Shown here in pieces: positions 32,620 to 57,915 of a DNA stretch of 64,000 bases. The notes beneath the pieces were generated by a model. The model worked only from the letters and a program-made list of their open reading frames with translations, ran no database searches and was not told the origin of the DNA. Each line of letters begins with the position of its first letter. Positions within the stretch are counted from its first letter, which is position 1. The translations under genes were made by a program, and so were the position numbers. Source of the stretch: Raillietiella orientalis (taxonomy: Eukaryota); contig JAYWIR010000016.1 in assembly GCA_036172245.1 (NCBI GenBank), forward strand, positions 806,001 through 870,000. The letters run 5' to 3'.

Positions 32620-35352
32620 AACCGGAGAGCTCCCGAGACGGAGGGAGGAGAAGAGGGGAAGGGGGAAAAGCATCGCCGACTCCGTCCATCCCCCTCCCGG
32701 TTCTCGGTTTTCGGATGTGCGGACGGTGCCTTCGGAAAAAGGAGACGGGAGGATAGGAAGGAGGAAGGAAGGACTCGAAAAAAAGGAAAGGAAAACCAGT
32801 GCGGGAAGGGGATCTGCTCCCGATCCCCTTACAAAAATAAAAATGAAAAAAAAAAAAAAAGTGTTCATTGTTGCCATGCGGGCTTCCAGGGACACGATCT
32901 GGAAAACCGTTCCAAGTCAGCTCGGGCGTCAAGAGAGTCTCGAGGCTCCCCCTCAGAGGCGGCAGAGACCCTTGGCCCGCAGCTAGGGAAGGGCCCGCAC
33001 GGCGGGCGAGGAATCCTTCCCCCCTCCAGTACAGGAGCAAGATCGACCTCGGAAAGGCGGGGTTCGCCATCCGAGATCGCCCGGCTACGAGATGCCGAGC
33101 TCTCCACTTCCCGAGAGGACGCCAGAGGACCACCGGGACCCTTCCCGGGAATATCTGGCACCCTCCTGAGGTGGACGCCCCTTTTGGAACGAGTGGGAGG
33201 GTTGGGTGCGGGGCGAGTTGGCAGAGGCCGGCTGCAGCTGGAGTTGGGCTTCCTCCCCGGCGTATCTTTCGGCCAGGATGCAGCCTCATCCCTTGCTGCC
33301 TCCCCCTCTCAGGACTTCCGGTTCTCCTGCCCCGAACGGCTTCGCCGTCGAGACGGTGGACGACAAAAAGGGAGGCCCCTTTCTTCCCTTTCCCTCTTCC
33401 CTTCCTTTTTTCCCCCTCGTGAGTGGAGACCCACCTCGGGCTGAGCTCCTCCGGGAACCCTTTCTGCCCACCCGCTCTCGGCAAGTCCGTAATGGTCCAG
33501 GGCGCGCAGAGGCGGCCTCATCTTCCATCGCAGCTCCTCCCCGCATCCCCGGAAGGCTACACCCAGGAGGCCGAAAGCGACCTCGCAGCGTTCTATACCT
33601 CCGCACGTGGATGAAGAGTCCTCCGAAGCCGGGTGAGGAGGAATCCTCCGCGGGGGATGGGAGCAGCCATGCTCGAGGGCCAGGGAGGGGACTGGAGGAG
33701 GAGGGAGGGAAAGACTACCTGGCTGCTCGCGGTGGGGATGCAGAGGAGGGAAGGAAGAGACGCGATGGCTCCAGCAGCAGGTGATTTTTGCGGCACGGGG
33801 TGGCTCAGGAACGAGGTAGGTAGGCGTACCCGGAGCGGGACGTAAACGGGCATCCGGGAGAGTCCAGGTCTCCTCCCGCGTTCCCCGTCTCGTCGGGCTT
33901 ATTGCGGCTGTCTCCGTTTCCTTCGAATTTCTGTCCCGCCCTCCCTGAAGGCGGCGTTGCTACTGAAGGGGGCATAGTGGCGAGTGTTTGTAAGGGAGCG
34001 CGCGCGCATCCCCCTCACTGCCCCGGCTCGGGGAGGAGGGCGAAGTAAGAAAAGGGCAGCTCGCTGCCCTTGGCCCCTCCTCTCCCGCTCTCTCCTCCTC
34101 TCCGTTCCCCACATACACACATCCCGTTGGCCGTTCCCCACTTCCCAATCTCTTCCTGGGCTTCGGGACAGATGGGATTTACGTGCGGAGGGAGGGGGAG
34201 GGGTTCGGAGAGAACCAGAAAGGGGTCCTGGGCCGCCGAAGCTTTAAGTCAAAGTGGTGCTTCTCACATCCCTCGGGTGTTTCTGCAGGGAGGAGGGAGG
34301 AGAGGAGTGTGTGTGCTGCGGAGTCGAATCTTCGCCTGCCGAGGGATGCGCGTCGACTAGGTTGGACCTATCTTGCCTGCGAGATGCGAGAGCGGGTCCG
34401 AAACAGCAGGGAATCCCATGGGCGGAGGGAAGGAACGAGATTGGGATGAGGGCTGCGGCTCCAGCCGCAGATGCTGCTGCGGAAGCCGCCGCCAAGAGAC
34501 GAGGAAAAGGGGTCGGGGATCCGAAGGTAAGGGTAGACTTGCGGGCGCGGATATACTGAAGAAGGGAGGAGAAAGGGGAGGGAAAGAAGCAGCAGTCCTG
34601 TCCGTACATCCTTCTCTCCGCGTCCATTTCCACAGAAACGGCGTGCTCTACCTACTGGAGCGCTGACAACGGGCAGCCCTCCCGAGCACGGCGTTTTTTT
34701 TTTTTGTTTCTTTTTTTTTTAAAAAAAAAAAGGTGGAAGAGAGTGGGGAGCCCTAAGCAGGAGGGATGATGCAGTAAGAGAGAGGATTATTATTTTTGGA
34801 CCTATGGAAATGTGGGAGGAAGGGGAGGACTCCCGGAATCCGCAGCTGCCGAAAGGTGAGCGGAAGGAAGGAAGCGCGCCGCGCGCGGAAGCTGCAGCCG
34901 TTCTCGTACCCACAAGTTGCCTGGGAATCTCTTTGAACGCTTCTCGGCCTTTTGGCTAAGATCAAAGGGAGGAATGGATACTCAGGGGGTCCAGAGCTGG
35001 AAGGGTCAGGTGGCTGACGGTGGATGGAACTAGGAAAAGTGGTCTTGCAGCAACGCCTACGATTCCTCCAGGGTCCACGGTGGGTGCACGCGTTTGGTGT
35101 GCTCCTCTCCCCTCCGCTACCAGTCCCAGTCCCTTTGTCCAGAAAGCAGGAGAGGCATCCGCAACGACCCTGGAGCCCATGTGGCAGCAGTGCATGCTAG
35201 TGGGTGGCGCACGCTCAGGTGGAGACTCGCCACACCCTCCCTTCCTTCCCTCGTTCGAGGCCATTGCCTTAAGGTGGTTCTCCCATACCGCCCATCCAGA
35301 GAAACCAGCTCCACTTACCGGGGAGAAGAGAGGGAGAAGGAGAAGAGGTATG

Positions 35353-38300
35353 GAGCCAGTTTTTACTGCAGAGACGTCTTCGGGAACGCCTAGGCGGAAG
35401 CCGAATCGTAGCAGGGGGCGCGGCCCTGGCTCCACCCAGCCCTTGGTTCCGGAAGTCTGGCGGCTGCCAAGAGGCGTTACGGGAGCGCATAGAGGGAGGT
35501 TCGGATCCTCCGCTCAAAGCAGGGGGGCGGAAATCCTGCTGTCTCCGTTCGAGCAGCCTCGAAGCGGAGGGAGCTGGCAGGAGGTGACTGAGAGCTCCCC
35601 TGGGGAGACCACCGTCGACTCTAGAGGGAAGGGTGGAGGGGAAAGTCGTCTTGGAAGCTGCTCGGGCGGCGAGACGACTGAAAGAGACATCTTGCCCCCA
35701 CACTTCCTCTCCCGCGTCATCGACCTGTGGGAAAGAACCACCTCCGACCTGAGGGCAAAATCCACTTCCCTCCCACACGCAAACTTCACTGGTTATGAGG
35801 ACGCCTTCCGAGATCACATGCACATCACTCCCCCCTTTCCACACTCGTGCTTGCAGGCGGTTGCAAGTCCCGAAACGCCCTGACTGGGACAACAGAAGCA
35901 CTCGTCGGGTTCGGGAAGGCAGCGCCCCCCTCCGCCCCTCATGCGTTGTTCAAGCGGGCGGCTAGCGGCCGCACTAAAGCACTCCAGGGCCCACAAACAG
36001 GGGCTTCTGAAGTGCGTGGTTCCTCCTTGTCCCCTCTTCTGTGGGTGCGCAGCCTCGACCCCAGGAAGGAACTGGCAGGCAACATGGAGCCAACCATCGA
36101 GCAGTGAGCAAGGGCAGGGATGGATAAGCCATCCTTCACTCTCCCCCCTGTGAGGGAGAGAAGGGGGGGAGTAGAAGGTTGAGAGGATCTGCCACCCAGT
36201 GGATGAGGCGCCAACCGGCTTCAGCGGAAAGGCAACCGCTAAAGAGGAAGGAGGAGGGGTAGGACGTTTCCCTCGGTCCCTACCTCCCAAGCAACTCCCC
36301 TCGGTTTTCCCCCGTGATCGTCAAAGAAACAAATTGTATTTGCATGCTTCATGAAGCTGTTCGAGGGTCGCCCGGAAGAGAGAGAAGGGCAGGGGAAGAA
36401 GAGGGAGTAGCCTTTTCAGGCATCCTCATAGAATTTGTACATCCTGCCGTCCAAAGTTTCCAGGAAGACGAAGTTTTCGTCGCGGCATCCTTCCTCCGGG
36501 TAGGTGACCATCTCGGAACTTCCCTTGGCGTCGCACGTCCTCTTGATGATGACGCACGTGTCCAACATGCGGACGAGGCACAGCATCATCACCTGGAAGA
36601 TGTAGATCGCATCCATCCCTTCCACATCCCGCTTCTGAGAGGGGAAGGAGGTAGGGAGTCTTCCCATGGCCCTCCCTGCTAACTCCCGGTTCTTCTCCCT
36701 CTCCCGAGACTCGGGAGGAGGCGGGAGACGGGAAGGAACGCCTCTCCGAAAAGAATGTCTCCCTCTGTCCGGTTCCTCCCTGTAATGCGTGCGGGAAGGA
36801 GGAGTGCCCCGGTCCTTCCTTCTTTGACCCGTCCTCGCCAGAGCTTGCCGAGAGGCGTCTCGAGGCCGGCAGCAGCGACGGTCAGCGCAGTGTCAGAGCA
36901 AGCAACGACCACCGCCCTCTCCCCTTGCATACCCTCTGCTCACTTGAACTGTTGCCCGTTTCTTGAGGAGGGACCCGCCCACACTTCAACTTCACTCCTG
37001 CGGGAGGTTACGTTGGCCACCCTACATTTCCCTCACCTTCGGGGTCATCCCAGGGACACCCTGCTCTCCCGAACTTCCCGCAGAGACGGATCCTCCACCT
37101 CCGTTCACCCTTCCTGCCTCCTTTCTAGCTGCCGGATCCCGTGCAGGAATGCTGCCCGCCCCCAGGGGAGAGGGACGAGAAGAAAAGGGAGGAAAAGGGA
37201 GGAGAAAGGGGGTTTGCTGAGGGTGGTGGGGGAGAAAGGGGGAGGTGAAGGAGTGGGAATCCACCGAACGTCTACCCACCCCCAACTCCTCTTTTCCTTC
37301 CCGCTCCCACAGGGGGACGAGTGCAGGAAGCCGATCGGAAACAAGGAGGCAGCTCCTGCGCGCGGACGCCTCCTCTCCCCCCTCTGCAAACCTCCACCCG
37401 CGTGGGGAATGGACGGGAGGAATTCCCTTTTCGTCTTTCCCGCGACTCCCCCTTTGTAAGGAGTCAGGGCGCTTACGTCGTCCACTTTCACGACCTGTAC
37501 CGTACTGTTGTGGATCCACGTGATGTGGTTGAGACGGTTCATGATCCACCTCAAGGGGGTCCTGTTATCCACGTCGCCGAAGAGTTCCTTCCAGAGCTTC
37601 GCGTTGGGGCCGTAGCCATCGTTCACCTTCATCCAGTAGTATTGCCTCATCACGTACGACAGCATCTGCAGCTTCAGCCCCTCACAGATCATTGTCCCGA
37701 AGCGCTGGTTGCTCTCCAGCGCCTCGACGACGAACCTCTCTCTGAACTGCTCGGGCACCTTCCGGGTCCTCTTCACCTGGAAGGGGAAAGGAGCGGCCGG
37801 GAAGCGCGTCCGAGGAGCCGATGTCTCCCTTACGAACAGCTTGAGAGCGCACAGACAGCCACGCATCCAGGCGACGCGATCCTCCAGGTCCTCCCCGAAC
37901 TCCTCCTCGTCCAGCGGGGGGTTCAGCCGCCAGATACCCAGCATGTCCCATTTCCCGAATTCGTTGAACACCTCCTCGTACTCCTTTCTCGGGGAGAAGA
38001 GGTCGCCCTCGAAGTGGACGAGGTTCTTCAGGACCACACCGGCCAGAACGGCCTTGAGCACGGCATACCCGTTCGGTCCGAAGAGGACTTTGTGCCGTGG
38101 AAATGGGACGTAGCCACTGACCACCAGCGATTGTACCATCTCCAGGAAGTCGGCAATTTCGCATTGCTGGTCGTCGCTTCCTCCTAGCGGCAGGGAACTA
38201 AAAGTTCACGCGTGCGAGATGGGTGCCAACTCCTTTCCCCTCGTTCCCTCCGCCTTCAAAGACGGGCGAAAGCACCCGGTTGCCCACCTTCCGCGCACGG

Positions 38301-41300
38301 CGAAGTACCATCGAAGAGACCCCGACCCGAGGATATTCCGCGCGAAAGAGCGAGACAAAACGAAAACGAAGATCGGCGGTCCTGTAGAAACGGTCGAAAC
38401 GCTCCACTCGCATTGACCGGGGAAGACAAGGGAGGAAGGAGGAAGGCTTCTGGTCTCGTGAGGACGCGCCCGCTCACTCGGAGGCTGAGCGCTCGCGAAG
38501 TCATCGCAGTAACTCAAGCCAGCAAAGGCTCGTGCAAGATGCAAGCTCCCAGCCCTGACCCCACGCGCACCCGCGCGGTCGCGCTCGCAACTCACTGTGC
38601 GCTCAAACACGCGGGTGCACGTTTCCCTCACGAGTGCAGGTGAGTAGGGGAACAGGCGGGACCGGGAGCGCTTTCCCCTGCTTCTCTACTTTTCGCAGCA
38701 GTTGTGGCTGCGGGGACCAAGGCGCTCATGGGGCCGAGGGAGGTGGGGTCAGCCACCGGCCGCCACTGCGCCTGCTGCGGCGGTGCCTCTTGGCTCGCAG
38801 CAGTTCTCTCGCCCCTACCCCAAAACGCCTAGCCCAGGGGCCGCCTTTCTCTCCATTCGGTCTCCGAGGCGACCAGCTTCCGGAGCCTCGACCATGGCTT
38901 AGCGGACGGATTGCGGAGACTTTTTCGGCACGCGCCGCATGGACGGAGGTGCACGCCGCAGTGTCTTTCCGCGCGACGCCGGAGTGTGCGTCGGCGGACT
39001 CCGGCGTCGGCGGAAAGATACTGTTGGGGGTAGGGGAGGGGGGCAGCCGGAGGAGGAGAAAGCGTTCCGCTTTTCCTCCTCCGTCCTCCCTCGTCTCTCG
39101 CAAAAGCGGTCGACCTGCAAGGGAAAACGTGTCCTCCCCTGGAGGCATTTTTTCTCGAGGTGCCGTGTTGGGCGCGAGGGGAGGTGTCAGGCAGGGTGGC
39201 ATCCCGAGTTGCCTCATGGGAGACTTTCGAAAAGGGGGAAGGGAGGTAGCATCCACCTCGTCCGCCTTCCCCTCTCCTCTCTCCAGCATCCGCCAACGAA
39301 TCAGCACGCTCCCGTCTCCCGCGAGAGCAGCTTCCCTTTTCCTCCCGAGGAGCTGGGACGTGCTACCCTTCCTTCCCTTCCTTAGGCCTCGAGACTCCCG
39401 CGGAGAACGCGGGCACCTCAGCCTCTCAGCTTTCCGACCATGCTTCTCTAGACGTCTGTCCCGATACCGGTTGATCGCTGAGGTCGCTCCCTGGATGGGT
39501 TCTTTCCTTCCTCTCGCCTTTTTGCGCCTTCCCCCTTTCTCTGCCGGACCTCCTCCATGAACTTCTGCATCCGATTATCCCCTTTTTCCCCTCCATCCAC
39601 GATGCGCTTTAGAGGAGTCAGCGTGTTGCCGTTAGCGACCACAGGTTGTTGCGAGTCGCACCGGAAGCGGACTTTGGGAACGCTTCTCCGGGGACGATTA
39701 GTGGGTTTCTGCTTTCTTCTCCCGAGGATTTGGAAAGGAAGGAAGAAAAAGTCCCCTTTCCTCCCACCCTCTTACTTTGCAGATCGGACTGCGGCCGAGA
39801 TAACTGCAGGACGGAGGGTCAAAGACAAGTGGCGCTCGACGAGGAGCGCCGAAGGGAGCGCCTGCCGCAGCCCGCGGACCGAATCCTCCGCCGTGCTCGT
39901 TGCTCTGGCACGCGCACATCGCGGCGGCGGTGTTCGTCCTCCTGCGGCTCCCGGCATGATTCTGGCTGGAGGGAGGGGAACACGTGATAGGCTAGCGCGC
40001 TAGTGGCGCTTCACGCGGGAGGAGCTGCTTGCGTACCCTTTAGGCAGATGTTCCTCCACTCGCCTCCAAGCAGAGACACGCGGACGCCGATCCCTATGCA
40101 AGGGCAAGAGGAAGCGCCATTTTACCACTCACCTATCCGGGAAAGCTAAGAAAGGATGCAGCACGAGCGGTGGCAGAGGCAGCAGCAACATTGGAAGATG
40201 AGGTCGTCTAGAAAAACGCTTGGGGGGGCTTGGAAGCCAAGTGTGGGGGCCGGAGGCCAAAGAAACTGTCAAAGGAATCGGTCGGTCGCATGCACCTTCG
40301 CTGGGTATGCGCCAAGAGAGGTCGTCACTTCAAGCGGATCCCCTCCGTGCTCCAGGCGTACTGACCTTCTAATGAAGCTTCCCAGCCTGCCGACGAGGCC
40401 GAAAAGATTTTGGTAGAAACTGGACATTTTCGGAATCAGGTATCAGAAGAAGGGAAGGAAAGGTCAGAGAGCTTTGTTGAGCTTGAAACAACTAAAGGGA
40501 AAAGGTGTAAGTTTGCACACAAACACGCAAAAATGAAGTCGTTCTCATGACAACAAGATTTTTCAGGAAGGCGAGCCGGACTGGACACGGAAACCACACT
40601 GATTCCCATTCCGTACCTACGCCGGACGGTTCTGGAGCCATGACCTACGTTTTCCCCAGTCCGACATGCTGTGTGCTGAATTTATCTTCTACTTTCGTTC
40701 ATGCAAGTGTTGGTCAATGTCACTGGTTTTCACTTTCAAAGTTGGTCTTCGGGCATCCAGTCGATGAGTTTGCGTGGGTAATTCACTCACATGACAAGGC
40801 TCCTGAGTCCTTTGCAGGATGTAACAGTACGTCCAAGCGGGAATGCGTCCACAACTTCCGATGCCGATTTCCCTTTTAACTACACTTTTCAGTATTTCAA
40901 CAGCCGGCACACTGTGGATTCCGGTCCTCCTTTTTGCCCTTCTTACCACGCTGCTCGTGATAAACAGGGCGATCGTGATGCGGACCATCGGGTTGTATCG
41001 AGGAACGTTGCCGTTCCCTTCAAACATCCCTGCCAGGATCTCCATCTTGTCCGTCCTCTGCAGGCCTTGGCCCAGTCCCGGCGCAGCGTCCTGGCAGGTG
41101 AGCACGTGGGGTTGCGTTTCCTTGGCTCCACAGGCCTTGCATATCTCTTCTTGCGCGTCCCCTGACCAGTGTCTCGCCCCCGTGCCGCTCAGGATGCCTC
41201 CGTGATAAAACAGCAGGTGGTCACCTTCAGTGTCGGGTGGTAGATCGCTCGTCCAGACCGTGGTCCCAACCTCCAGCAGGTTCATCTGTCGGCGCCCGTA

Positions 41301-41715
41301 GCGGCTGACGGCCACAGACAGAGCGTCGTCCTCGTCGGGATTCTTCTTCGCTGCTTCTCGGATGTTTCGTCTGGTGATCAGGCGCCAGCATTCGGATTCC
41401 TAATTTCTGCAGAGCTCTCGATCTTTGTGGGTAAATCTTTCTATCGTTTTCTTGGTGGGGTGGATCAGTCGCATTTTCTGGCGATCGTCACTGGTTTCAA
41501 ACTGCTCGCAGTCCTTGATGGTCCTGTTTGGCCTGTCGAACATCCACCTTCTGGTGTCCCAAGGGACGCTCAGGAAGCATGGGATGATCTTTGCCAGTTC
41601 GTGCCGGCGCTATTTTGAGTTCGTGGGTGTTCCCCAGTGCTTGCTTGCGCTTCCAAGCGGGATCGATGCTTCGCCACTGTCCTTGTTTGCCTATTAGGGT
41701 GGACATCAGACCTCT
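35353..41715. repeat. Segmental duplication, copy 1 (~6.4 kb)
   Basis: Colinear near-identity with 48073-54436 (offset 12720-12721); the ORF track gives paired, near-identical translations. Confidence 0.97.
36416..38183 (-). CDS. OTULIN/FAM105 (peptidase C101)-like protein with catalytic residues replaced, copy 1; 5' exons unresolved
   Basis: Exons 38183-37834, 37776-37477 and 36634-36416 have canonical, in-phase splice sites. Colinear matches to human OTULIN as recalled: GYAVLKAVL~NYCALRATL, ICEGLKLQML~LYEAVKFLML, LFGDVDNRTPLRWIMNRLN~LFARDTSNDPGQLLRNHLN, and gapless QVMMLCL..R..TYP..D..VFL..DGRMYK~QVEMFLL..R..VYP..D..VTL..DDRHYN. Confidence 0.8.
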
Positions 41716-42795
41716 GGAATATCGAGCAACTGCGAGTAGGCTTTATGCGCTGCATAGGGCCACTCGTCCCATTTGTCGGCACGATCCAGGATTTGTCGCA
41801 CGTCCTGCAGATCCATGGATTGCTCGTACGATTTGATCCCGGTCCCGCCCTTGTCTCGCGGTCGGCACAACAGTTTTAGTCTGACCTTCGTCTTTAACTC
41901 TTTCCATAGCATTTTTCTCTGCAGTTGTTCCACCTGGTTGCTCGTCCGCTCGTTTAGTCGGCAGGAGGCCGCTCTGAGGAGCTCCTTGGGAAGGAGGACT
42001 CCGTTCCACAGGTTTGCCCTCTGCTTTCAGGCAAAAGTCCAGTTGGACGTATTTTGCAGCCTCTTCTCTCGTTTTCCCCAGGATTTCTTCCCACATGTGC
42101 TGCGAAGCCGAGGCGTCGCCGATGTGGATTCCCCAGTACTTGATGCCGTCCACTACTTGGAATCCAGTCTCCGTTACGGCGGACCGGTGGAGGATTCCGA
42201 TGGGCAATAGCTGGGATTTCTGGGCGTTGATCTTCAAGCTTAGGCCTCTCTCCATGGACTTGACGACACCGAGGAACGCATGCTGGTCCCTCTCGTCCTT
42301 CAGGAAGAAGAGGAGATCGTCCGCATGCTCCAGTTGCGTTAGTTTGTCGTCGTCTAGCCTTAGTCCTTGCAGACGGCCGCCACAATGCGCCAGTGACGAA
42401 ACCGCCTGCATGCACACCACGAACAGCATCGGACTACGGGCGTCTCCTTTGAGGATTGTCCTCTCCATCCGGAAGACTGCCGTGTCTTGCCCGTTGATGG
42501 TTATCCTGCAGTACTGTCCTTCGAGATTCTTCAGCATGTAGTCGCCGAAGTATTCCGGGTAGACCAGCTTCCTCAAAATCTTCAGTAGGATTCCATGTTG
42601 CACGGTATCGAACGCCTCCTCCATATCTGTGCATCCAGCACCAGGTTGTCGCCGATGTAGCGACTGTTACCTATGGTCGCCTGGGCACACTTCACGTTGT
42701 CAGACATGCTGCATCCGGGCACCGCGCAAGTCTGCATTGGAGAGATGACGGATGAGAGCGTCTTGCTTAAGCAGTTGGCCCAGATCTTGGCCAAC
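40500..42795 (-). mobile_element. L1/Tx1-like ORF2 (RT plus Zn finger), downstream part of element A; frameshifted pseudogene
   Basis: AKIWANCLSKTLSSVISPMQ, DMEEAFDTVQH, LKGDARSPMLF, HADDLLFF, LKINAQKS, IKYWGI, RPRDKGGTG, CKACGAKETQPHVLTC. Confidence 0.92.
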
Positions 42796-44875
42796 CTGCG
42801 TTTCTTTTTGCAACTGCCACGTGTACGGTATTTCCGTTCGCAGGGGCATCAGGCAGGGCGACAGTTTAAGCCCGTTGCTCTTCAGCATCTTTGAGCTGGT
42901 GCTGAGGGTGTACAGGCTGACGCTGGAGTACCTGCCTAGCTCTTGCCCGTGAACGCCTGCCGTGGCTGCCTATGCAGATGACCTGCTTCTTCTGCTCCCC
43001 ATGTCCACCCCGGCGTCCAGTGCCGAAGATTTCTTCGAACTGATTCGTCGGGGACCGGGCGTGAGCGTGAACAGGAAGAAGAGCATGGTCGTTCCTGTGG
43101 GAGCGTCGTGGGAGGGGCAGTTCGACTGGATCCGCCTGGGAATCCCCACGGCAGGGTTCTTCAAGTACCTTGGCGTTCCGCTGGGCGACCTTGGAGCTGC
43201 CGAGGCGTGGTCGGACTGCCTTCATAAGGCAGAGTTGGCCGCCAGCCCGTTCATTAATGTTAAGTTTACCTTGCCGGAACGGGCGGCCATTTGGAATAAC
43301 TTCCTGGCCCTCCTCCTCCGACACCTGTTTTTTATCATGGACCCCCCCCTACGCGGCCAAAGAGCGGGCAAAACGCCTGCTAAGAAACGCTCTCTGGGGT
43401 CCGGCGCAATCCAGGATCCTCCTTAAAGACCTGACGGCTCCACGTCGGGATGCCGACCTTGGCACCCTGACGATGGAGCGGATTGGACTGCAACTGCAGT
43501 TCCGGATGCTAACACTGTGTGCCGAGCTTTGGGCTGCCCCGCTCTGTGCGCCTGCGCACATCCTCCTACGGAGGTGTGCCGGTAGTGAAGGACTTCTTTC
43601 CTTGGTTCCGGGCAGGCGCTACAGAAAACAGGGGTTTGGCTATCCTTTGAGGGCACTCGCCTCACTGCTGGAAGCCAATTCGTGAATTTCCTGCCGCCCA
43701 ATGAACTACAATGCTTGGCGGCAGAAATCTGTTGATTCTTGGGCTGCATTTCTGGAAATGAGTACCGATGATCTTCGCCCACTGCGTCAATTCCAACCTG
43801 GGTCACTCCAAGATGTGATGCAGGACGAGGTGAAGTTTTCCACCCTGGCCGCCACGCCCCTCGCCGAAGCGCTGTCTGCCCTCGAGGATAGAGAAGACAG
43901 TAGCCAACTTGCGAGTTGGGAGTTCTCCTGCACCATCGCAGGAAGAACGAAACTTCTCGGCGAATGGGACATGAGGGAGCTGGCGGATGCCTCCACTCGT
44001 GCTACGGCAAAGGGACTTCTTCGGTTGAGAGAAGCTCTTGGTGTTGCCCCCGATGAACTGATTGTTCCTCCCTGCTGTTTGTACAGTTCGGTGTTTCCCC
44101 TTGCATGCAAGCAAGACGTCTTTCTCTTCTTGCACTGGGGTTTCCGCCACAACGAGCGGCGGCGCCGAGTTTCTGGTGGGGTGGCTTCTCCCTACTGTGC
44201 CCGGTGCGGGGAGACGGAGTCGTTCCCGCACCTTGTTGTGGATTGCGGTACCTCCAGGAACTCTGGCGGACGTTGGCAACAGCACTCCTGTCACCGGGGG
44301 ACACCGCCCGAGAAGTGCTGCGACGGTTCTTCCAACCGCAAGGACTTTCGACGGCTGCGATGATTTCGACAGTTAGTTGCATCCGCGCCATCGTCATGGT
44401 CCGAGACGTGCTGGAGAACACATGTCAGCGATGATGTGTCATCAGGAAGGCAGCTGACTTCATCAGTGCGGCTGCTGGGTGGCGACTCTTTACCGAAAAT
44501 GAAACAGAGGAGCTCACCAGCATCCATGGTCGGATTACCTATGGTTTGGAACGTCGAACCCGGTGATCCACCTCCATTCCCATTCAATTTCATTTTTATT
44601 TTCGCGCTATACTTCCCATTCGCTCTGTAGTGCTTTTGGTACTCTTAGTCTTTGTGTTTTCCGGGGACTGCGGAGCGTCACCAAAGATCCCTGGCCCTTT
44701 CCTCCCATTTAGACTGTTCTTCTTTGTTTGTTGTCCCCCCCTAATCTACCACCCGTTCCTGACCTTCCGGTTTCCTGGCCTGCGTGCCAGTGGCGTATCT
44801 TCGTTGTAGGTTTTCTCGTAGTTGTCGGCTGGAAAGAACTGTTTCCAGATGGTTTATCAAAATAAACGTCCCGGC
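42796..44875 (+). mobile_element. Family X retrotransposon (element B), 5'-truncated, nested antisense in element A
   Basis: RRGIRQGDSLSPLLF, AYADDLLL, VNRKKS, FKYLGVP, CARCGETESFPHLVVDC; ends AATAAACGTCCCGGC. Confidence 0.92.
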
Positions 44876-44884
44876 GTGACCAGG

Positions 44885-45760
44885 TAAGAAACTTTGAGTC
44901 TGTGTTCAGGATGGAGATAGGACGCCATTGGTTGGGTCTCCTCCCTTTGTCAGCAGTCTCATCCTGCTTTCGTGGAACGAATCGGGGATTCGTTCTTCTT
45001 GATTGCGAAGCGTCAGCTCGTAAAACAACCGCAGGTAGGCGCGCAGGTGCCGCTGATAGTGCGAGATGGGCACGCAATCAGAGCCTGCAGCCACATCCTT
45101 GAGGAGTTCTCCGAATGCCTGCTTCGCTTCTTCCATGAAGATTTCTTCTTCCAGGCTTTCCTTCTGCTGCCTGCTGAGCGTCTCTTCTGTAGGTGGCGAA
45201 GGAACACCTCTTCCTCAGTTCTGCACAGTTCTTGGGCGTCGGAGGTGGGCGGCGTAATGTTCATCGGAAGCCATGACGCTCGTGGAAAATCCCGCTGGAT
45301 CTGGTGGCGTATCTGAAGGGAAGGGTCGCTAAGATGCCAGCCGCTGCAGAAGGCGCACTTCCCGACAGTAGCGGCGATCCTCAACCCCATTCCCTTCGGA
45401 GCGTTCTGCGAGGACCCGGGGAGGGGGAGGGGGAGGGAGTTCCGGACTGCGAGTCCCGGACTCGACGGGAAGACTCCAGCGCAGAATTCCGCACGTCAGT
45501 CGCTCTGTGTCAACAGCACTTTTCGCGGGTAACACGGTTGTCACACTCCATCCCTTCCTCTATGGAACGCATTAGCAGTTGCACGCACTGCCAACGGCAT
45601 CGTATCTCCCCCGCAAGGAGCGCTTGTGCGGCAGCCGCGCAGAGGGAGGGGTGGGTAAGCTGGGCATTGGTAGCGTGTCCTCTGGTGTGCTTATCTTGCC
45701 CGAGGAGTCGGAAAGTCCTCCGCGGTGCTGGCTCATGCTTGGCTGACTAGAATAAGGGTC
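44885..45760 (-). mobile_element. Upstream part of element A (linker and RT N-terminus)
   Basis: EEAKQAFGELLKDVAAGSDCVP..IPDSFHESRMRLLTK..WRPISILNTDSKFL, which continues into AKIWANCL at ~42790. Confidence 0.85.
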
Positions 45761-48022
45761 ACCAGAATGGGGTCTTCCCCACCATCTCGCAAAATTGACG
45801 CCCCTTAGGATAGGATGGGTTTCCTTCTCTCTCTCTTTCTCTTACCCCTCATTTTCAGGGTGCGGTATTGAGGCAGCGGTCCTGTTTTGTCGCACACTTT
45901 CCTGCGCTCTCCTTCCGGGATGGCTTTTGAACGCAATCGGACCCACCGCCCGCTGAACCCATCTCCTTCCTCTCTCCGATGAAATTCAGGACCTCTTCCG
46001 CTCCTGCCTGCAGGCCTTTCGCTCTTCACTCCTCCCTTCGGTGCTTTCCCTACCGATGCAGGGAAGATGCGGCCTCCTGGAGACCCGAAGCAAGCGCATG
46101 CGGCTCTGTGAGGTACTTCGTTTGCCCCGCGGCCTCACGACCCTTACTCTTCCCTTCTTTTCCTGGATACTTCGCGGGGGTAGGGGAAGTAGTGAAAATC
46201 CCCTCCCCTTCCCCGGTGTGCCTCACAGCCGGAGCAATGAGGGCGAGGCGCTTTTAGCTACGCGCGGAAGGGAGAAAGGTGGCGGTAGATGGAGGTAAGG
46301 AAGGTGTCGACCCTTCCCTCTTCCCATTCCACGAAGAAGACTTCGATCCTGAGGATCGTCAGCATGCGCACGGAAACTAAGCTTCCGTTTCCTGGCCCGC
46401 GCCGACTCTCGCAAAGCGTTTTCCTGGAGTCTGGACGCGGCGGGAGTGCGGGTCAGCTACTCCGGAATCCCAGGGAACGTCGCTACGGTCGGAGATCGGC
46501 CAGAAAGGGGGGCGAGGTCTCCCAGGAGATTCTCCGAGCCGGAGAGGAAACGCTGGGATGCGAGCTGGATCGCTCTCTCTCAGGACCTCTCCCACACTTT
46601 CCTCCCCGGCAATCCAAGAGCGCGGGGGAAGGAGCCGCAGAAGTCGCAGCAAAGACTTCAAGGGAAGGAAAGTGTGGGAGGTTACGTAGTAAGAGGAGAC
46701 TCGTCAGAAGGAAATGATGCTGCTTTTCTCCTCGATAAGATTTCTAATAGCAGCATCTCGTCTGCACAAACCTTCTAAGCGAGTCTGCATGCTTGGGTTT
46801 CTAATCTGTTAGGGTAGTGGGAAGTTTCCACTATCGTCTACCCCTGCTTTTTCTCTTCAACTCGTTTTGTGATTCTGAAGGCTCTTTCATAATGGACGGT
46901 GGTCCATCCGATGTTGCCAGCGCTTATCATCGACCTAGCATGCCTCCTGTCGAATTCTCCAACGTTACATGACTTCCCGGATTTCCAAATCCCAGAAATC
47001 CCACGACGATTGCTCCCACGACGGCGCTCATCCCTTTTAGAGTCTAAGCGAAGAGCCAGTCCTCGCTGCTTGCTCCCCTGCTCCTGTCTTTCCTTCTCCA
47101 GCGCTGCAAGGAATATTCGTTGGAGCAAGCTACGTCCAGTGTGATTGCTTTTCCTGAGTCCTGGACCACTATGTGTAGCTTTAGCTTCGAAACTGTGTGC
47201 CCGGAACACTTTGATTGGAGACCGCTGATCTTTCAGAGTAGCCCTCTAGATCTGTGTCAGTATAGCTCGGTTTGCCGATGCATCTGCTGAAGATGTGATT
47301 TACACATTCTTCCCATCTTTCGAACTTTGTGCACTGGCAGCCGATGCCATCCCTGATGGAGGACACCCACACAGACAAAAGAAGGTGTTGAATCTGCAAC
47401 CCGTGTATCGAAGGTGTTCCCCGTTAGATAGAAAAGCCCTACTCTGCCGAACGCAGGACAAGGTCTTCCCTTGATCCGGGTATTTTGCAATGCGGGATGT
47501 CTTTTCTGCATTTTAGTAAATTGTACATGGGCTTGAGGCAATTTGCTTTCTATGATTTTCAAATAGTATAATTGCCGCCCATCCTCTCGTGTGTGCGTCA
47601 AAAGTGGAGCAGCCAATGTAATTGCGAGCATTGACTCATTTCGAACAGGAACTAAGAGTGATGACGTTGATGGAGTTTCCCCCCTTCTTTCCCCCGGGTC
47701 GGTACAACTGTTCTGTGGAATCTTCGTTTTTATTTAAGGACATGACGATTGTAGTAAAGGTTTTGTCTCACAGAACTCCTGGAACCAACGGGCACTCTCG
47801 CAGATGTTCTGTTGGTTATGATAGCAACCGATAAACATGAACACTGGAATATTGTGGTTTATCCTTGGAGGAAAGTGAATTGTCCAGGTGACACAAATAA
47901 AAAGAAAAGAAAAGCTTTACTTGACCTTCCTGTCACCTTTGGAGCGCAGATGCCGGATTCCCCCCTCCTCCCTCCCCACTCCGAAACTTTCAAGCATGTA
48001 AACCAAACCTGGGCGCCTACGG

Positions 48023-48074
48023 CTCTTCCAAATCTTTAAACTTGCTTGCTCGATGTTCAGTGGAGAGATGATGA
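48023..48074 (+). repeat. 52-bp direct repeat at the left flank of duplication copy 2
   Basis: ctcttccaaatctttaaacttgcttgctcgatgttcagtggagagatgatga; 49/52 identical to 54449-54500. Confidence 0.9.
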
Positions 48075-49136
48075 GCCACTTTTTACTGCACAGACGGCTT
48101 CGGGAACGCCTAGGCACAAGCCGAATCGTAGAAGGGAGCGCGGCTCCGACGCCACCAAGCCCTTGGCTCCGGAAGTCTGGCGGCTGCCAAGAGGCGTTAC
48201 GGGAGCGCATAGAGGGAGGTTCGGATCCTCCGCTCAAAGCAGGGGGGCGGAAATCCTGCTGTCTCCGTTCGAGCAGCCTCGAAGCGGAGGGAGCTGGCAG
48301 GAGGTGACTGAGAGCTCCCCTGGGGAGACCACCGTCGACTCTAGAGGGAAGGGTGGAGGGGAAAGTCGTCTTGGAAGCTGCTCGGGCGGCGAGACGACTG
48401 AAAGAGACATCTTGCCCCCACACTTCCTCTCCCGCGTCATCGACCTGTGGGAAAGAACCACCTCCGACCTGAGGGCAAAATCCACTTCCCTCCCACACGC
48501 AAACTTCACTGGTTATGAGGACGCCTTCCGGGATCACATGCACATCACTCCCCCCTTTCCACCCTCGTGCTTGCAGGCGGTTGCAAGTCCCGAAACGCCC
48601 TGACTGGGACAACAGAAGCACTCGTCGGGTTCGGGAAGGCAGCGCCCCCCTCCGCCCCTCATGCGTTGTTCAAGCGGGCGGCTAGCGGCCGCACTGGAGC
48701 ACTCCAGGGCCCACAAACAGGGGCTTCTGAAGTGCGTGGTTCCTCCTTGTCCCCTCTTCTGTGGGTGCGCAGCCTCGACCCCAGGAAGGAACTGGCAGGC
48801 CACATGGAGCCAACCATCGAGCAGTGGGGCAAGGGCAGGGATGGATAAGCCATCCTTCACTCTCCCCCCTGTGAGGGAGAGAAGGGGGGGAGTAGAAGGT
48901 TGAGAGGATCTGCCACTCAATGGATGAGGCGCCAACCGGCTTCAGCGGAAAGGCAACCGCTAAAGAGGAAGGAGGAGAGGTAGGACGTTTCCCTCGGTCC
49001 CTACCTCCCAAGCAACTCCCCTCGGTTTTCCCCCGTGATCGTCAAAGAAACAAATTGTATTTGCATGCTTCATGAAGCTGTTCGAGGGTCGCCCGGAAGA
49101 GAGAGAAGGGCAGGGGAAGGGGAGGGAGTAGCCTTT

Positions 49137-50904
49137 TCAGGCATCCTCATAGAATTTGTACATCCTGCCGTCCAAAGTTTCCAGGAAGACGAAGTTTTCG
49201 TCGCGGCATCCTTCCTCCGGGTAGGTGACCATCTCGAAACTTCCCTTGGCGTCGTACCTCCTCTTGATGATGACGCACGTGTCCAACATGCGGACGAGGC
49301 ACAGCATCACCACCTGGAAGGTGTAGATCGCATCCATCCCTTCCACCTCCCGCTTCTGAGAGGGGAAGGAGGTAGGGAGTCTTCCCATGGCCCTCCCTGC
49401 TAACTCCCGGTTCTTCTCCCTCTCCCGAGACTCGGGAGGAGGCGGGAGACGGGAAGGAACGCCTCTCCGAAAAGAATGTCTCCCTCTGTCCGGTTCCTCC
49501 CTGTAATGCGTGCGGGAAGGAGGAGTGCCCCGGTCCTTCCTTCTTTGTCCCGTCTTCGCCAGAGCTTGCCGAGAGGCGTCTCGAGGCCGGCAGCAGCGAC
49601 GGTCAGCGCAGTGTCAGAGCAAGCAACGACCACCGCCCTCTCCCCTTGCATACCCTCTGCTCACTTGAACTGTTGCCCGTTTCTTGAGGAGGGACCCGCC
49701 CACACTTCAACTTCACTCCTGCGGGAGGTTACGTTGGCCACCCTACAGTTCCCTCACCTTCGGGGTCATCCCAGGGACACCCTGCTCTCCAGAACTTCCC
49801 GCAGGGACGGATCCTCCACCTCCGTTCACCCTTCCTGCCTCCTTTCTAGCTGCCGGATCCCGTGCAGGAGTGCTGCCCGCCTCCAGGGGAGAGGGACGAG
49901 AAGAAAAGGGAGGAAAAGGGAGGAGAAAGGGGGTTTGCTGAGGGTGGTGGGGGAGAGAGGGGGAGGTGAAGGAGTGGGAATCCACCGAACGTCTACCCAC
50001 CCCCAACTCCTCTTTCCCTTTCCGCTCCCACAGGGGGACGAGTGCAGGAAGCCGATCGGAAACAAGGAGGCAGCTCCTGCGCGCGGACGCCTCCTCTCCC
50101 CCTCCGCAAAACCTCCACCCGCGTGGGGAAGGGACGGGAGGGATTCTCTTTTCGTGTTTGCCGCCACACCCCCTTCGCGGGGAGGCAGGGCGCTTACGTC
50201 GTCCACTTTCACGTCGTCTACCGTCCTCTTGTGGATCCACGTGATGTGGTTGAGACGGTTCATGATCCACCTCAAGGGGGTCCTGTTATCCACGTCGCCG
50301 AAGAGTTCCTTCCAGAGCTTCGCGTTGGGGCCGTAGCCATCGTTCACCTTCATCCAGTAGTACTGCCTCATCACGTACGACAGCATCTGCAGCTTCAGCC
50401 CCTCACAGATCATTGTCCCGAAGCGCTGGTTGCTCTCCAGCGCCTCGACGACGAACCTCTCTCTGAACTGCTCGGGCACCTCCTGGGTCCTCTTCACCTG
50501 GAAGAGGAAAGGAGCGGCCGGGAAGCGCGTCCGAGGAGCCGATGTCTCCCTTACGAACAGCTTGAGAGCGCACAGACAGCCACGCATCCAGGCGACGCGA
50601 TCCTCCAGGTCCTCCCCGAACTCCTTCTCGTCCAGCGGGGGGTTCAGCCGCCAGATACGCAGCATGTCCCATTTCCCAAATTTATTGAACATCTCCTCGT
50701 ACTCCTTTCTCGGGGAGAAGAGGTCGTCCTCGAAGTGGACGAGGTTCTTGAGGACCAGACCGGCCAGAACGGCCTTAAGCACCGCATACCCGTCGGGACC
50801 GAAGAGACCTTCGCGCTGCCTAGGTGGGGCGCAGCCACTGACCACCAGCGATTGTACCATCTCCAGGAAGCCGGCGGCTTCCCATTGCTGTTCGTCGCTT
50901 TCGC
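49137..50904 (-). CDS. OTULIN/FAM105-like pseudo-deubiquitinase, copy 2; 5' exons unresolved
   Basis: Paralog of copy 1 at offset 12721. Exons 50904-50555, 50497-50198 and 49355-49137; splice sites and open frame are kept despite many substitutions. Confidence 0.8.
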
Positions 50905-53219
50905 CTTGCGGGGGGGAACTAAAAGTTCACGCGTGCGAGATGGGTGCCAACTCCTTTCCCCTCGTTCCCTCCGCCTTCAAAGCCGGCCGAAAGCACCCGG
51001 TTGCCCCCCTTCCGCGCACGGCGAAGTACCATCGAAGAGACCCCGACCCGAGGATATTCCGCGCGAAAGAGCGAGACAAAACGAAAATGAGGATCGGCGG
51101 TCCTGTAGAAACGGTCGAAACGCTCCACTCGCATTGACCGGGGAGGACAAGGGAGGAAGGAGGAAGGCTTCTGGTCTCGTGAGGACGCGCCCGCTCACTC
51201 GGAGGCTGAGCGCTCGCGAGGTCATCGCAGTAACTCAAGCCAGCAAAGGCTCGTGCAAGATGCAAGCTCCCAGCCCTGATCCCACGCGCATCCGCCCGGT
51301 CGCGCTCGCAACTCACTGTGCGCTCAAACACGCGGGTGCACGTTTCCCTCACGAGTGCAATTGCGTAGGGGAACAGGCGGGACCGGGAGCGCTTTCCCCT
51401 GCTTCTCTACTTTTCGCAGCAGTTGTGGCTGCGGGGACCAAGGCGCTCATGGGGCCGAGGGAAGTGGGGTCAGCCACCGGCCGCCACTGCGCCTGCTACG
51501 GCGGTGCCTCTTGGCTCGCAGCAGCTCTCTCACCCCTACCCCAAAACGCCTAGCCCAGGGGCCGCCTTTCTCTCCCCTCGGTCTCCGAAGCGACCAGCTT
51601 CCGGAGCCTCGACCATGGCTTAGCGGACGGATTGCGGAGACTTTTTCGGCACGCGCCGCATGGACGGAGGTGCACGCCGCAGTGTCTTTCCGCGCGACGC
51701 CGGAGTGTGCGTCGGCGGACTCCGGCGTCGGCGGAAAGATACTGTTGGGGGTAGGGGAGGGGGGCAGCCGGAGGAGGAGAAAGCGTTCCGCTTTTCCTCC
51801 TCCGTCCTCCCTCGTCTCTCGCAAAAGCGGTCGACCTGCAAGGGAAAACGTCTCCTCTCCTGGAGGCATTTTTTCTCGAGGTGCTGTGTTGGGCGCGAGG
51901 GGAGGTGTCAGGCAGGGTGGCATCCCGAGTTGCCTCATGGGAGACTTTCGAAAAGGGGGAAGGGAGGGAGCATCCACCTCGTCCGCCTTCCCCTCTCCTC
52001 TCTCCAGCATCCGCCAACGAATCAGCACGCTCCCGTCTCCCGCGAGAGCAGCTTCCCTTTTCCTCCCGAGGAGCTGGGACGTGCTACCCTTCCTTCCCTT
52101 CCTTAGGCCTCGAGACTCCCGCGGAGAACGCGGGCACCTCAGCCTCTCAGCTTTCCGACCATGCTTCTCTAGACGTCTGTCCCGATACCGGTTGATCGCT
52201 GAGGTCGCTCCCTGGATGGGTTCTTTCCTTCCTCTCGCCTTTTTGCGCCTTCCCCCTTTCTCTGCCGGACCTTCTCCAGAAACTTCTGCATCCGATTATC
52301 CCCTTTTTCCCCTCCATCCACGATGCGCTTTAGAGGAGCCAGCGTGTTGCCGTTAGCGACCACAGGTTGTTGCGAGTCGCACCGGAAGCGGACTTTGGGA
52401 ACGCTTCTCCGGGGAGGATTAGTGGGTTTCTGCTTTCTTCTCCCGAGGATTTGGAAAGAAAGGAAGGGAAAGTCCCCTTTCCTCCCACCCTCATACTTTG
52501 CAGATCGGACTGCGGCCGAGATAACTGCAGGACGGAGGGTCAAAGACAAGTGCCGCTCGACGAGAAGCGCCGAAGGGAGCGCCTGCCGCAGCCCGCGGAC
52601 CGAATCCTCCGCCGTGCTCGTTGCTCTGGCACGCGCACATCGCGGCGGCGGTGTTCGTCCTCCTGCGGCTCCCGGCATGATTCTGGCTGGAGGGAGGGGA
52701 ACACGTGATAGGCTAGCGCGCTAGTGGCGCTTCACGCGGGAGGAGCTGCTTGCGTACCCTTTAGGCAGATGTTCCTCCACTCGCCTCCAAGCAGAGACAC
52801 GCGGACGCCGATCCCTATGCAAGGGCAAGAGGAAGCGCCATTTTACCACTCACCTATCCGGGAAAGCTAAGAAAGGATGCAGCACGAGCGGTGGCAGAGG
52901 CAGCAGCAACATTGGAAGATGAGGTCGTCCAGAAAAACGCTTGGGGGGGCTTGGAAGCCAAGTGCGGGGGCCGGAGGCCAAAGAAACTGTCAAAGGAATC
53001 GGTCGGTCGCATGCACCTTTGCTGGGTATGCGCCAAGAGAGGTCGTCACTTCAAGCGGATCCCCTCCGTGCTCCAGGCGTACTGACCTTCTAATGAAGCT
53101 TCCCAGCCTGCCGACGAGGCCGAAAAGATTTTGGTAGAAACTGGACATTTTCGGAATCAGGTATCAGAAGAAGGGAAGGAAAGGTCAGAGAGCTTTGTTG
53201 AGCTTGAAACAACTAAAGG

Positions 53220-54436
53220 GAAAAGGTGTAAGTTTGCACACAAACACGCAAAAATGAAGTCGTTCTCATGACAACAAGATTTTTCAGGAAGGCGAGCCGG
53301 ACTGGACACGGAAACCACACTGATTCCCATTCCGTACCTACGCCGGACGGTTCTGGAGCCATGACCTTCGTTTTCCCCAGTCCGACATGCTGTGTGCTGA
53401 ATTTATCTTCTACTTTCGTTCATGCAAGTGTTGGTCAATGTCATTGGTTTTCACTTTCAAAGTTGGTCTTCGGGCATCCAGTCGATGAGTTTGCGTGGGT
53501 AATTCACTCACATGACAAGGCTCCTGAGTCCTTTGCAGGATGTAACAGTACGTCCAAGCGGGAATGCGTCCACAACTTCCGATGCCGATTTCCCTTTTAA
53601 CTACACCTTTCAGTATTTCAACAGCCGGCACACTGTGGATTCCGGTCCTCCTTTTTGCCCTTCTTACCACGCTGCTCGTGATAAACAGGGCGATCGTGAT
53701 GCGGACCATCGGGTTGTATCGAGGAACGTTGCCGTTCCCTTCAAACATCCCTGCCAGGATCTCCATCTTGTCCGTCCTCTGCAGGCCTTGGCCCAGTCCC
53801 GGCGCAGCGTCCTGGCAGGTGAGCACGTGGGGTTGCGTTTCCTTGGCTCCACAGGCCTTGCATATCTCTTCTTGCGCGTCCCCTGACCAGTGTCTCGCCC
53901 CCGTGCCGCTCAGGATGCCTCCGTGATAAAACAGCAGGTGGTCACCTTCAGTGTCGGGTGGTAGATCGCTCGTCCAGACCGTGGTCCCAACCTCCAGCAG
54001 GTTCATCTGTCGGCGCCCGTAGCGGCTGACGGCCACAGACAGAGCGTCGTCCTCGTCGGGATTCTTCTTCGCTGCTTCTCGGATGTTTCGTCTGGTGATC
54101 AGGCGCCAGCATTCGGATTCCTGATTTCTGCAGAGCTCTCGATCTTTGTGGGTAAATCTTTCTATCGTTTTCTTGGTGGGGTGGATCAGTCGCATTTTCT
54201 GGCGATCGTCACTGGTTTCAAACTGCTCGCAGTCCTTGATGGTCCTGTTTGGCCTGTCGAACATCCACCTTCTGGTGTCCCAAGGGACGCTCAGGAAGCA
54301 TGGGATGATCTTTGCCAGTTCGTGCCGGCGCTATTTTGAGTTCGTGGGTGTTCCCCAGTGCTTGCTTGCGCTTCCAAGCGGGATCGATGCTTCGCCACTG
54401 TCCTTGTTTGCCTATTAGGGCGGACATCAGACCTCT
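53220..54436 (-). mobile_element. Duplicated 3' part of element A
   Basis: 284-aa ORF 53410-54264 with CKACGAKETQPHVLTC; near-identical to 40500-41715. Confidence 0.9.
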
Positions 54437-54448
54437 CGAACCTCAGAC

Positions 54449-54500
54449 CTCTTCCAAATCTTTAAACTTGCTAGCTCGATGTTGGGTGGAGAGATGATGA
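54449..54500 (+). repeat. 52-bp direct repeat at the right flank of duplication copy 2
   Basis: ctcttccaaatctttaaacttgctagctcgatgttgggtggagagatgatga; 49/52 identical to 48023-48074. Confidence 0.9.
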
Positions 54501-56877: not shown

Positions 56878-57829
56878 GCAGTTAGTCTTCAACCGTATTT
56901 AACAGCTGTGAGGCATACCTTGACAGCTGCCATGTGCCTACAAAATTTTCCATCACAGATTGTAGGAGCACAAACTAAACCAGAAGTTGAACTTAGGTAA
57001 CAGTAAATAAGTGGCTTTTTATCAAAGTTAATTCCACCAAATATCATGTTTTCTGTGAGGATGTGAAAGTGTTTTGTGTTGTGTTAAGACTGCAATGTAG
57101 ATTCAGTGTATGGTAGCATTCACTGAGATGCTTTTTCAGCGAACCAAAAGAGAAAAAGCAAGTTCTATTTTGGTTTACTGATGCGTCTCCATCTAATGGG
57201 AATGAAACCAATTCAATTTATGGTTTAGTAGTAAACCAATAAATGGCAAAATACATCTTAAAAAATTCAAATTGTAAATATGGTCAAAATTATTGTGAAA
57301 AGATTTGTATGTGAACAAAAATCACTTGTATTTTTTGTCTTTCTCTTAAGAAATAGTAAGGAGCTTCTTTTAAATCCAGTTCTTATTACTCGTAATGACA
57401 CTGAAAAAGTACTTATTGAATCATCAATCAATTCTTTACGTGTCAGCATTGCCTTTAAACAAGCTGATGAAATTGAGCGAATTTTGTTAAACAAATTTGC
57501 CAACATGATGATGAAACGGGCAGAAAGTTTTTTTATTTTAAGAAGGAAGCCTGTCAAAGTAATGTTACCAATATTTCCACCATATAATAATAATTTCATT
57601 AGGGATATAATATTAGCTTTTTGATCACTAACTTCCACACAGAGCAGATGTATAAACATAAATTGATAGACTTCATTATTCAATTCATGGAAGAGATCAG
57701 CAAGGAAATCTCCGAAATGAAAATAAATGTCAATGCACGTTTTCGCATTTGTGCTGGAGAGTTCCTAAAGATAGTAAGTCATTACAGTGCATTACTTAAT
57801 ATTGAAATCTGAATTTTTAGTTTGACTGA
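56878..57829 (+). CDS. ARPC4: Actin-related protein 2/3 complex subunit 4 (p20-Arc)
   Basis: Exons 56878-56996, 57351-57558, 57603-57773 and 57821-57829 encode [15 protein letters not shown]...[54 protein letters not shown]. The ATG-only first exon is not certain; a candidate ATG|gt lies at 56545-56547. Confidence 0.96.
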
Positions 57830-57915
57830 TATTGCAAGAATGCATGTTTCAATTATGAATTTATTTTATCCAAGTTGATAATAAAATAATCCTTGGGTTT
57901 ACAAAAACTGGATTA

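Follow-up and report, generated by a model that had tools for sequence, protein, structure and literature searches.

Peaks of divergence in duplicated genes that convert one another are known from the human red and green opsins and from a model of RHCE and RHD (PMC3924837, in the sections that treat these genes). Here we describe a comparable mosaic in Raillietiella orientalis, in a 64,000-nucleotide window (the whole stretch analysed: positions 806,001 to 870,000 of the forward strand of contig JAYWIR010000016.1, assembly GCA_036172245.1; coordinates below count from its first letter). The window is GC-rich eukaryotic DNA, contains no N and holds, by self-BLAST, a single long repeat, a direct one, whose two copies, A and B, are 97.65% identical over 6,383 columns, with 144 mismatches and six gap openings. 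Each copy carries a minus-strand gene whose product is probably a distant relative of the OTULIN family (Peptidase_C101, PF16218). From the pattern of differences between the copies, we think it somewhat probable that this is an old tandem duplicate pair, homogenised by conversion between its own two copies, in which short islands of high divergence are the tracts that escaped. The elements on which this reading depends are the following.

35339..41719, unstranded: copy A of the duplicated unit (self-BLAST and MAFFT alignment)
48062..54440, unstranded: copy B of the duplicated unit (self-BLAST)
48023..48074, unstranded: flank F, which ends unit A and recurs past unit B at 54449-54500
37477..38196, minus strand: large exon of gene A, an open frame of 240 codons; GC at codon positions 1/2/3 of 0.60/0.35/0.83; sub-threshold PF16218 match, E 0.07, in its C-terminal half
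36416..36634, minus strand: terminal exon of gene A with the stop codon, 72 codons; CTCAG|AAG acceptor, in phase 0 with the donor of the first exon
50198..50917, minus strand: large exon of gene B; GC at codon positions 1/2/3 of 0.60/0.37/0.83; sub-threshold PF16218 match
49137..49355, minus strand: terminal exon of gene B with the stop codon; GC at codon positions 1/2/3 of 0.51/0.31/0.83; sub-threshold PF16218 match, E 0.2

We compared the two copies in a MAFFT alignment of their core (35450-41700 in A coordinates), which holds 133 differences in 6,251 columns. These differences are distributed very unevenly, as the regional rates show (A coordinates unless stated).

35450-37381: left part, 27/1932 = 1.40%
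37382-37507: cluster C1, 22/126 = 17.5%
37508-37904: middle of the large exon, 4/397 = 1.0%
37905-38192: cluster C2, 37/288 = 12.8%
38073-38192: core of C2, 26/120 = 21.7%
38193-40399: region to the right of C2, 38/2207 = 1.72%
40400-41700 (53121-54421 in B): least-diverged block, 5/1301 = 0.38%

The original prediction, which relied on a manual count, had reported about five differences in ~1.3 kb of this last block, dozens within ~280 bp at 37920-38200 and a second cluster at 37385-37510; the alignment gives 5/1301, 37/288 and 22/126, respectively. The clustering that it described also stands up to a formal test. The maxima of the scan statistic in windows of 40, 100, 150 and 300 columns are 15, 21, 28 and 37 differences, whereas the highest values in 5,000 shuffles are 8, 12, 15 and 21, so that the observed clustering was reached in 0 of 5,000 shuffles at any width. 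A hidden Markov model with two states, a background of 0.9% and islands of 16.4%, is preferred to a single state, with a Bayesian information criterion (BIC) of 1302 versus 1407. Three islands are distinguished below, the first of which had no place in the earlier account.

35354..35448 (48074-48168 in B), unstranded: island 1, non-coding, at the left edge of the duplication, 13/95 differences
37379..37510 (50100-50231 in B), unstranded: island 2, the last 11 codons of the large exon and ~94 bp of the start of the intron
38028..38195 (50749-50916 in B), unstranded: island 3, the first ~56 codons of the open frame

Island 1 has a probability of P = 4e-9 under a background of 1.5% and is followed by 362 identical bases. 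The 22 differences of island 2, which lie in two runs of the high state, comprise 5 exonic ones, all non-synonymous, and 17 intronic ones. Island 3, likewise made up of two such runs, contributes 30 differences in 168 columns and lies within the wider cluster at 37905-38192 (50626-50913 in B), where a short extra run of the high state occupies 37953-37973. The suggestion that the clusters spill into introns thus holds for C1, with 17 of its 22 differences past the donor, but not for C2, which ends inside the open frame. Both internal islands touch coding sequence, for which the chance probability is 0.041. On the right side of the unit, flank F shows 3 differences in 52 positions (P = 0.045 under a background of 1.5%), and both unit ends are more diverged than the interior.

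The three islands agree in their neutral divergence, which is 13/95 for the edge DNA, 17/92 for the intronic part and 12.5/67.2 for synonymous sites, a range of 14–19% with no significant heterogeneity (chi-square p = 0.61). This equality favours a single age for all three, and the fact that the edge island is as diverged as the internal ones favours escape from conversion between A and B. The locus displays the marks of interlocus conversion, namely a mosaic with sharp tracts, an excess of silent changes in the islands and diverged edges of the homologous block.

Conversion could also have worked in the opposite sense, with ectopic events pasting foreign tracts from further, diverged paralogs into one of two young copies that are otherwise ~1.5% apart. 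The sharpness of the island borders fits such imports, as do the intact frame and the fact that synonymous, intronic and non-synonymous sites are affected alike. The upstream border is suggestive as well: C2 ends 4 nt inside the open frame, with the next 69 bp upstream identical, and a border of island 3 at most 4 nt from the start of the frame is what a donor sharing homology with the exon only would leave. Against this, no donor is seen, whether as a third copy in the 64-kb window or as a relative in the searched collections, which may simply not include this organism, and a search for local templates with 12-mers on both strands returned single chance words only. A donor ~16-20% diverged would, moreover, offer few perfect-match runs from which conversion could start. 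Independent imports are not expected to be equally diverged, which disfavours three imports from other paralogs; their shared neutral divergence and the presence of an equally diverged, non-coding island at the duplication's edge are both left unexplained. We regard import from a donor as rather unlikely. The original prediction had raised conversion with further paralogs as the favoured one of two possibilities; its tract-wise character is retained here, whereas the evidence on partners favours homogenisation between A and B that left islands behind, and a larger gene family does not follow from the pattern. Micro-inversion was considered as a separate cause of the clusters and rejected, as identity in the inverted orientation is 18-38% compared with 62-87% in the direct one.

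The other possibility that had been raised was diversifying selection. We estimated non-synonymous and synonymous divergence (dN and dS, with omega their ratio) from Nei-Gojobori counts on the large exon.

Codons 1-98: dS 0.214, dN 0.117, omega 0.55
Codons 20-56: dS 0.296, dN 0.159, omega 0.54
Codons 99-229, middle of the exon: dS 0.012, dN 0.010, omega 0.81

In the clusters, dS is raised ~15-25-fold over the middle of the exon, and the signature of positive selection, a dN/dS above 1 at background dS, is absent, with omega at 0.49-0.72. The excess of differences in the islands is common to silent and non-coding sites. Because synonymous sites carry the excess too, the islands are better understood as tracts older than their surroundings than as accumulations of selected point mutations.

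Some features do point toward site-wise diversifying selection on a young duplicate near the presumed former catalytic loop and the insertion. The peptides cited for these two places in the original prediction, YVPFPRHKVLFGPNG and CAPPRQREGLFGPDG beside the loop and HNSTVQVV and HKRTVDDV in the insertion, are encoded as stated. Loop codons 28-37 have 9.5 non-synonymous and 2.5 synonymous changes (omega 1.47, not significant with 12 changes only), and a gapped alignment suggests that part of the difference in the loop is a pair of compensating 3-bp in-frame indels. All 5 changes in the exonic part of island 2 and all 6 changes (6/6) in the terminal exon are non-synonymous. The same tracts that would be under selection, however, carry the 15-25-fold rise in dS, with an overall omega of 0.5-0.7; 17 of the 22 differences of island 2 are intronic and island 1 is non-coding; and no omega value differs significantly from 1. 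With dS at 0.21-0.30 versus 0.012, one cluster mostly intronic and a third non-coding, diversifying selection is a very improbable cause, and the proposal is not sustained. Silent sites, introns and duplication edges are what separate, in this case, a tract-wise history from a look-alike of fast adaptive evolution.

The least-diverged block had been taken for dead retrotransposon and used as a neutral baseline for the gene. Neither use is borne out. The block itself has no Pfam match and no homologue; a reverse-transcriptase match occurs only in the adjoining DNA, which is not duplicated. It is also less diverged than the other non-cluster DNA (5/1301 versus 69/4536, Fisher p = 6e-4), so that the background is ~1.5% rather than the value in the block. 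CpG decay as a reason for the low divergence was rejected, with a CpG observed/expected ratio of 0.66-1.21 and few CpG transitions. Because the background is uneven, at 0.38% versus 1.5%, conversion events of different ages are suggested, and the block appears to be the most recently homogenised part of the unit and not a neutral clock. Its counterpart in B contains an open frame of 306 codons (53413-54330, minus strand), for which we found no Pfam match and no homologue among proteins of near or greater length.

Taken together, we infer the following history for the locus. A unit of ~6.4 kb, with a minus-strand gene of two exons that encodes a strongly diverged OTULIN-family-like protein, would have been duplicated long ago. 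Repeated non-allelic gene conversion would have kept the copies 98-99.6% alike over ~94% of their length, that is, in concerted evolution, while three short tracts would have escaped and diverged since the duplication, by ~16% raw or ~0.18-0.3 corrected. Island 1 would be spared by its position, since conversion tracts need flanking homology on both sides and would rarely reach the edge of the unit. The two internal islands, at the ends of the large exon (its last 11 codons with the start of the intron, and the N-terminal ~55 codons), could persist in two ways, which may combine. Selection may eliminate alleles in which conversion has wiped out functional differences between the two genes, producing a 'peak of divergence' of the type in the RHCE/RHD model of Innan (2003), as cited in PMC3924837; alternatively, mismatches, once accumulated, may block the formation of heteroduplexes. 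Selection may guard the two internal islands against homogenisation, a view to which their shared contact with coding sequence lends modest support; selection on the islands is unproven. If the copies do convert, the background of 1.5% greatly underestimates the age of the duplication. The internal islands would then mark where these lineage-restricted OTULIN-like paralogs may differ in function and would be a cheap guide to mutagenesis and binding studies.

Several observations weigh against this account. That conversion did the homogenising, how old the duplication is and whether selection plays a part are all read from the pattern of two sequences with no outgroup, which reveal neither the direction nor the age of the tracts. 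Adding a third state to the hidden Markov model brings no improvement over two (BIC 1340 versus 1302), and the evidence for several tract ages is the one regional contrast described above. Within the islands, omega is ~0.5, a value that does not depart significantly from 1 (P = 0.13) and gives no proof of selection. Outside them, coding changes number 14 non-synonymous and 3 synonymous (omega 1.2), and an omega of 0.3 or less is rejected (P = 0.015); the gene pair therefore looks weakly constrained, at least recently, which weakens the case for selectively guarded differences. Finally, the ratio of transitions to transversions is 37:35 in the islands and 53:22 in the background, and the excess of transversions is unexplained.

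This difference in spectrum is one reason to consider local hypermutation, in which error-prone repair or replication (break-induced or microhomology-mediated) would have showered substitutions on a young duplicate, at its junction and at two internal sites, either when the duplication arose or afterwards. The position of island 1 at the duplication junction would suit such a process, as would an excess of adjacent double substitutions that extends even to the background. There, 6 adjacent pairs occur among 75 differences, compared with ~1 expected by our estimate; pairs include 35976-77, 36399-400, 38639-40, 38855-56, 39558-59 and 39746-47. Inside the islands, however, adjacent pairs are at about the chance level for that density (15 pairs among 72 differences, ~12 expected by our estimate), and no APOBEC-like, strand-coordinated or single-type signature was seen among the differences. 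Divergence of 16-22% over 95-170 bp is also, to our knowledge, far above the densities found near such junctions. Because the excesses of transversions and of adjacent double substitutions are unexplained, we leave some weight to mutagenesis as the source of the islands but judge it distinctly unlikely.

The arrangement of the unit bears on whether A and B are paralogs at all. Homology between the copies breaks at 41719|41720 and resumes at ~48011-48023, where copy A is interrupted by additional sequence.

41720..48022, minus strand: 6.3-kb insert resembling a long interspersed nuclear element (LINE), in copy A only, with a reverse-transcriptase frame at 41746-42666 (RVT_1, E 8.9e-12)

The members of the flank F pair (52 bp, 94.2% identity, 3 mismatches by self-BLAST) lie after this extra 6.3 kb in A and 8 bp past the end of the copy in B. 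The layout is most simply read as a ~6.43-kb unit duplicated in tandem, the first copy of which was later split near its end by the LINE-like insertion; a deletion in B, or an origin of B by retrotransposition, could also account for it. The reverse-transcriptase frame ends at 41746, 27 bp off the joint. No A-tail and no clear target-site duplication were seen at the borders of the insert, and the empty site in copy B has a 16-bp local repeat of TCAGACCTCT. We set aside the specific idea that copy B is a retrocopy made by LINE 3'-transduction with flank F as its target-site duplication: copy B keeps its intron, has no A-tail and holds no demonstrable LINE sequence.

If the assembly had joined divergent haplotypes of one locus in tandem, the apparent paralogs would be alleles, and an identity of 97.65% is within the range for divergent haplotypes. 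Both copies nevertheless lie in one gap-free stretch, flanked by 35 kb of other sequence on one side and 9.5 kb on the other, and they differ structurally, the 6.3 kb being in A only. The joint from A to B, furthermore, partly resembles the left border of unit A, which is what a genuine duplication joint would show. An artefact of this sort seems to us highly improbable.

The gene model follows from codon periodicity. In the large exon, periodicity ends exactly at the GAC|GTAAGC donor, past which the frame stays open for 123 further codons with GC1/2/3 of 0.64/0.63/0.66. The periodicity of the terminal exon was measured on the B exon; the terminal exons of A and B are 91.5% identical as protein. 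Both junctions are in phase 0, and the exons join in frame as VKVDD|KREVEG. A and B have the same donor, the same CTCAG|AAG acceptor and the same stop codon, consistent with the statement in the earlier account that frame and splice sites are kept. No third codon-periodic block was found between or upstream of the two exons (48062-53100), which leads to a two-exon gene model. Translation may begin at Met-20 of the open frame (38139 in A), as the register of the PF16218 match places Met-20 at approximately the start of the profile. Antisense to gene B is an open frame of 527 codons (49970-51553, plus strand; the counterpart in A has 312 codons), which has no Pfam match and most likely just reflects how GC-rich the third codon positions of the sense gene are.

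The assignment to the OTULIN family is indirect. The 366-residue open frame has no Pfam match at E <= 1, and in a relaxed search PF16218 was the sole family to appear, of 24,736. Residues 152-226 of the B large exon align with positions 131-202 of the 265-position profile (E 0.15), the C-terminal half of the large exon alone gives E 0.058 in B and E 0.07 in A, and residues 14-67 of the B terminal exon align with positions 209-262 of 265 (E 0.2). Weak matches thus cover the profile in order, 130-202 in the large exon and 209-262 in the terminal exon, with 1-129 unmatched; the first 101 residues, the part in which the catalytic cysteine would be expected, match nothing. Scores are 13.2 bits for the C-terminal half in B, 13.0 for the same part in A, 12.2 and 11.9 for longer B pieces and 11.5 for the B terminal exon, the best of them short of the gathering cut-off of 27 bits. 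Chance is an unlikely source of collinear matches of two exons to the same one of 24,736 families, and a distant OTULIN kinship is therefore probable. Only the terminal exon of B still reaches the profile and that of A does not, a faint hint that copy A may be drifting.

Other searches with the large exon returned no relative. These comprised phmmer against 1.84 billion representative proteins, a word-based search of proteins of near length, the ESM Atlas, and scans of genome, viral and metagenome contigs. The PDB had no sequence match, and a profile search against it gave two hits at chance level (E 1.4 and 1.8). AlphaFold2 run on the two-sequence alignment yielded an unusable fold model (mean predicted local distance difference test score of 40.0, predicted template modelling score of 0.31).

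A more specific reading would join the islands to this kinship. Selection would actively hold two putatively catalytically dead OTULIN-like paralogs apart in the former active-site cleft, within the N-terminal ~55 codons, and in a C-terminal insertion, with conversion homogenising the rest; we consider this unlikely. If it were true, the locus would encode a lineage-specific pair of pseudo-deubiquitinases whose binding specificities have been split, for example between types of ubiquitin chain or in a role as decoys for the effectors of pathogens; the surface that determines specificity would then be what the divergence peaks trace.

The remainder of the window has few recognisable features. 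Exons of an alkaline phosphatase (PF00245) lie at 23165-32584 on the plus strand, spread over ~9 kb with long introns, and match pieces 1-50, 101-151, 154-219 and 336-400 of the profile in order. An 81-bp palindrome at 6765-6845 is 86% identical to its own reverse complement by self-BLAST. Right past copy B, GC falls abruptly from ~0.60 to 0.31-0.33 (54500-62000), and the long frames in this region have no Pfam match; one perfect 25-bp tandem repeat in two copies lies at 58636-58686. Rfam and transfer RNA scans of the window were empty.

Set beside known systems, the encoded proteins share with OTULIN/FAM105 (PF16218) three sub-threshold collinear matches and differ in scores far below 27 bits and in an N-terminal region of 101 residues that is unmatched. 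The duplication is unlike the opsins and RHD/RHCE in three respects: two sequences are available here, with no outgroup or population sample, so that concerted evolution and selection are inferred only; amino-acid constraint is weak (omega ~1.2 outside the islands); and one island is an edge effect, not a coding peak. With exon 5 of the human red and green opsins and with RHD/RHCE, as PMC3924837 describes them, it has in common introns and flanking DNA that are nearly identical, a steep local increase in divergence to which silent sites and adjacent non-coding positions contribute, and tandem copies separated by a few kb. Overall, the pattern is most likely a known and fairly ordinary one, of textbook kind, and this locus a new example of it in a weakly OTULIN-like gene.

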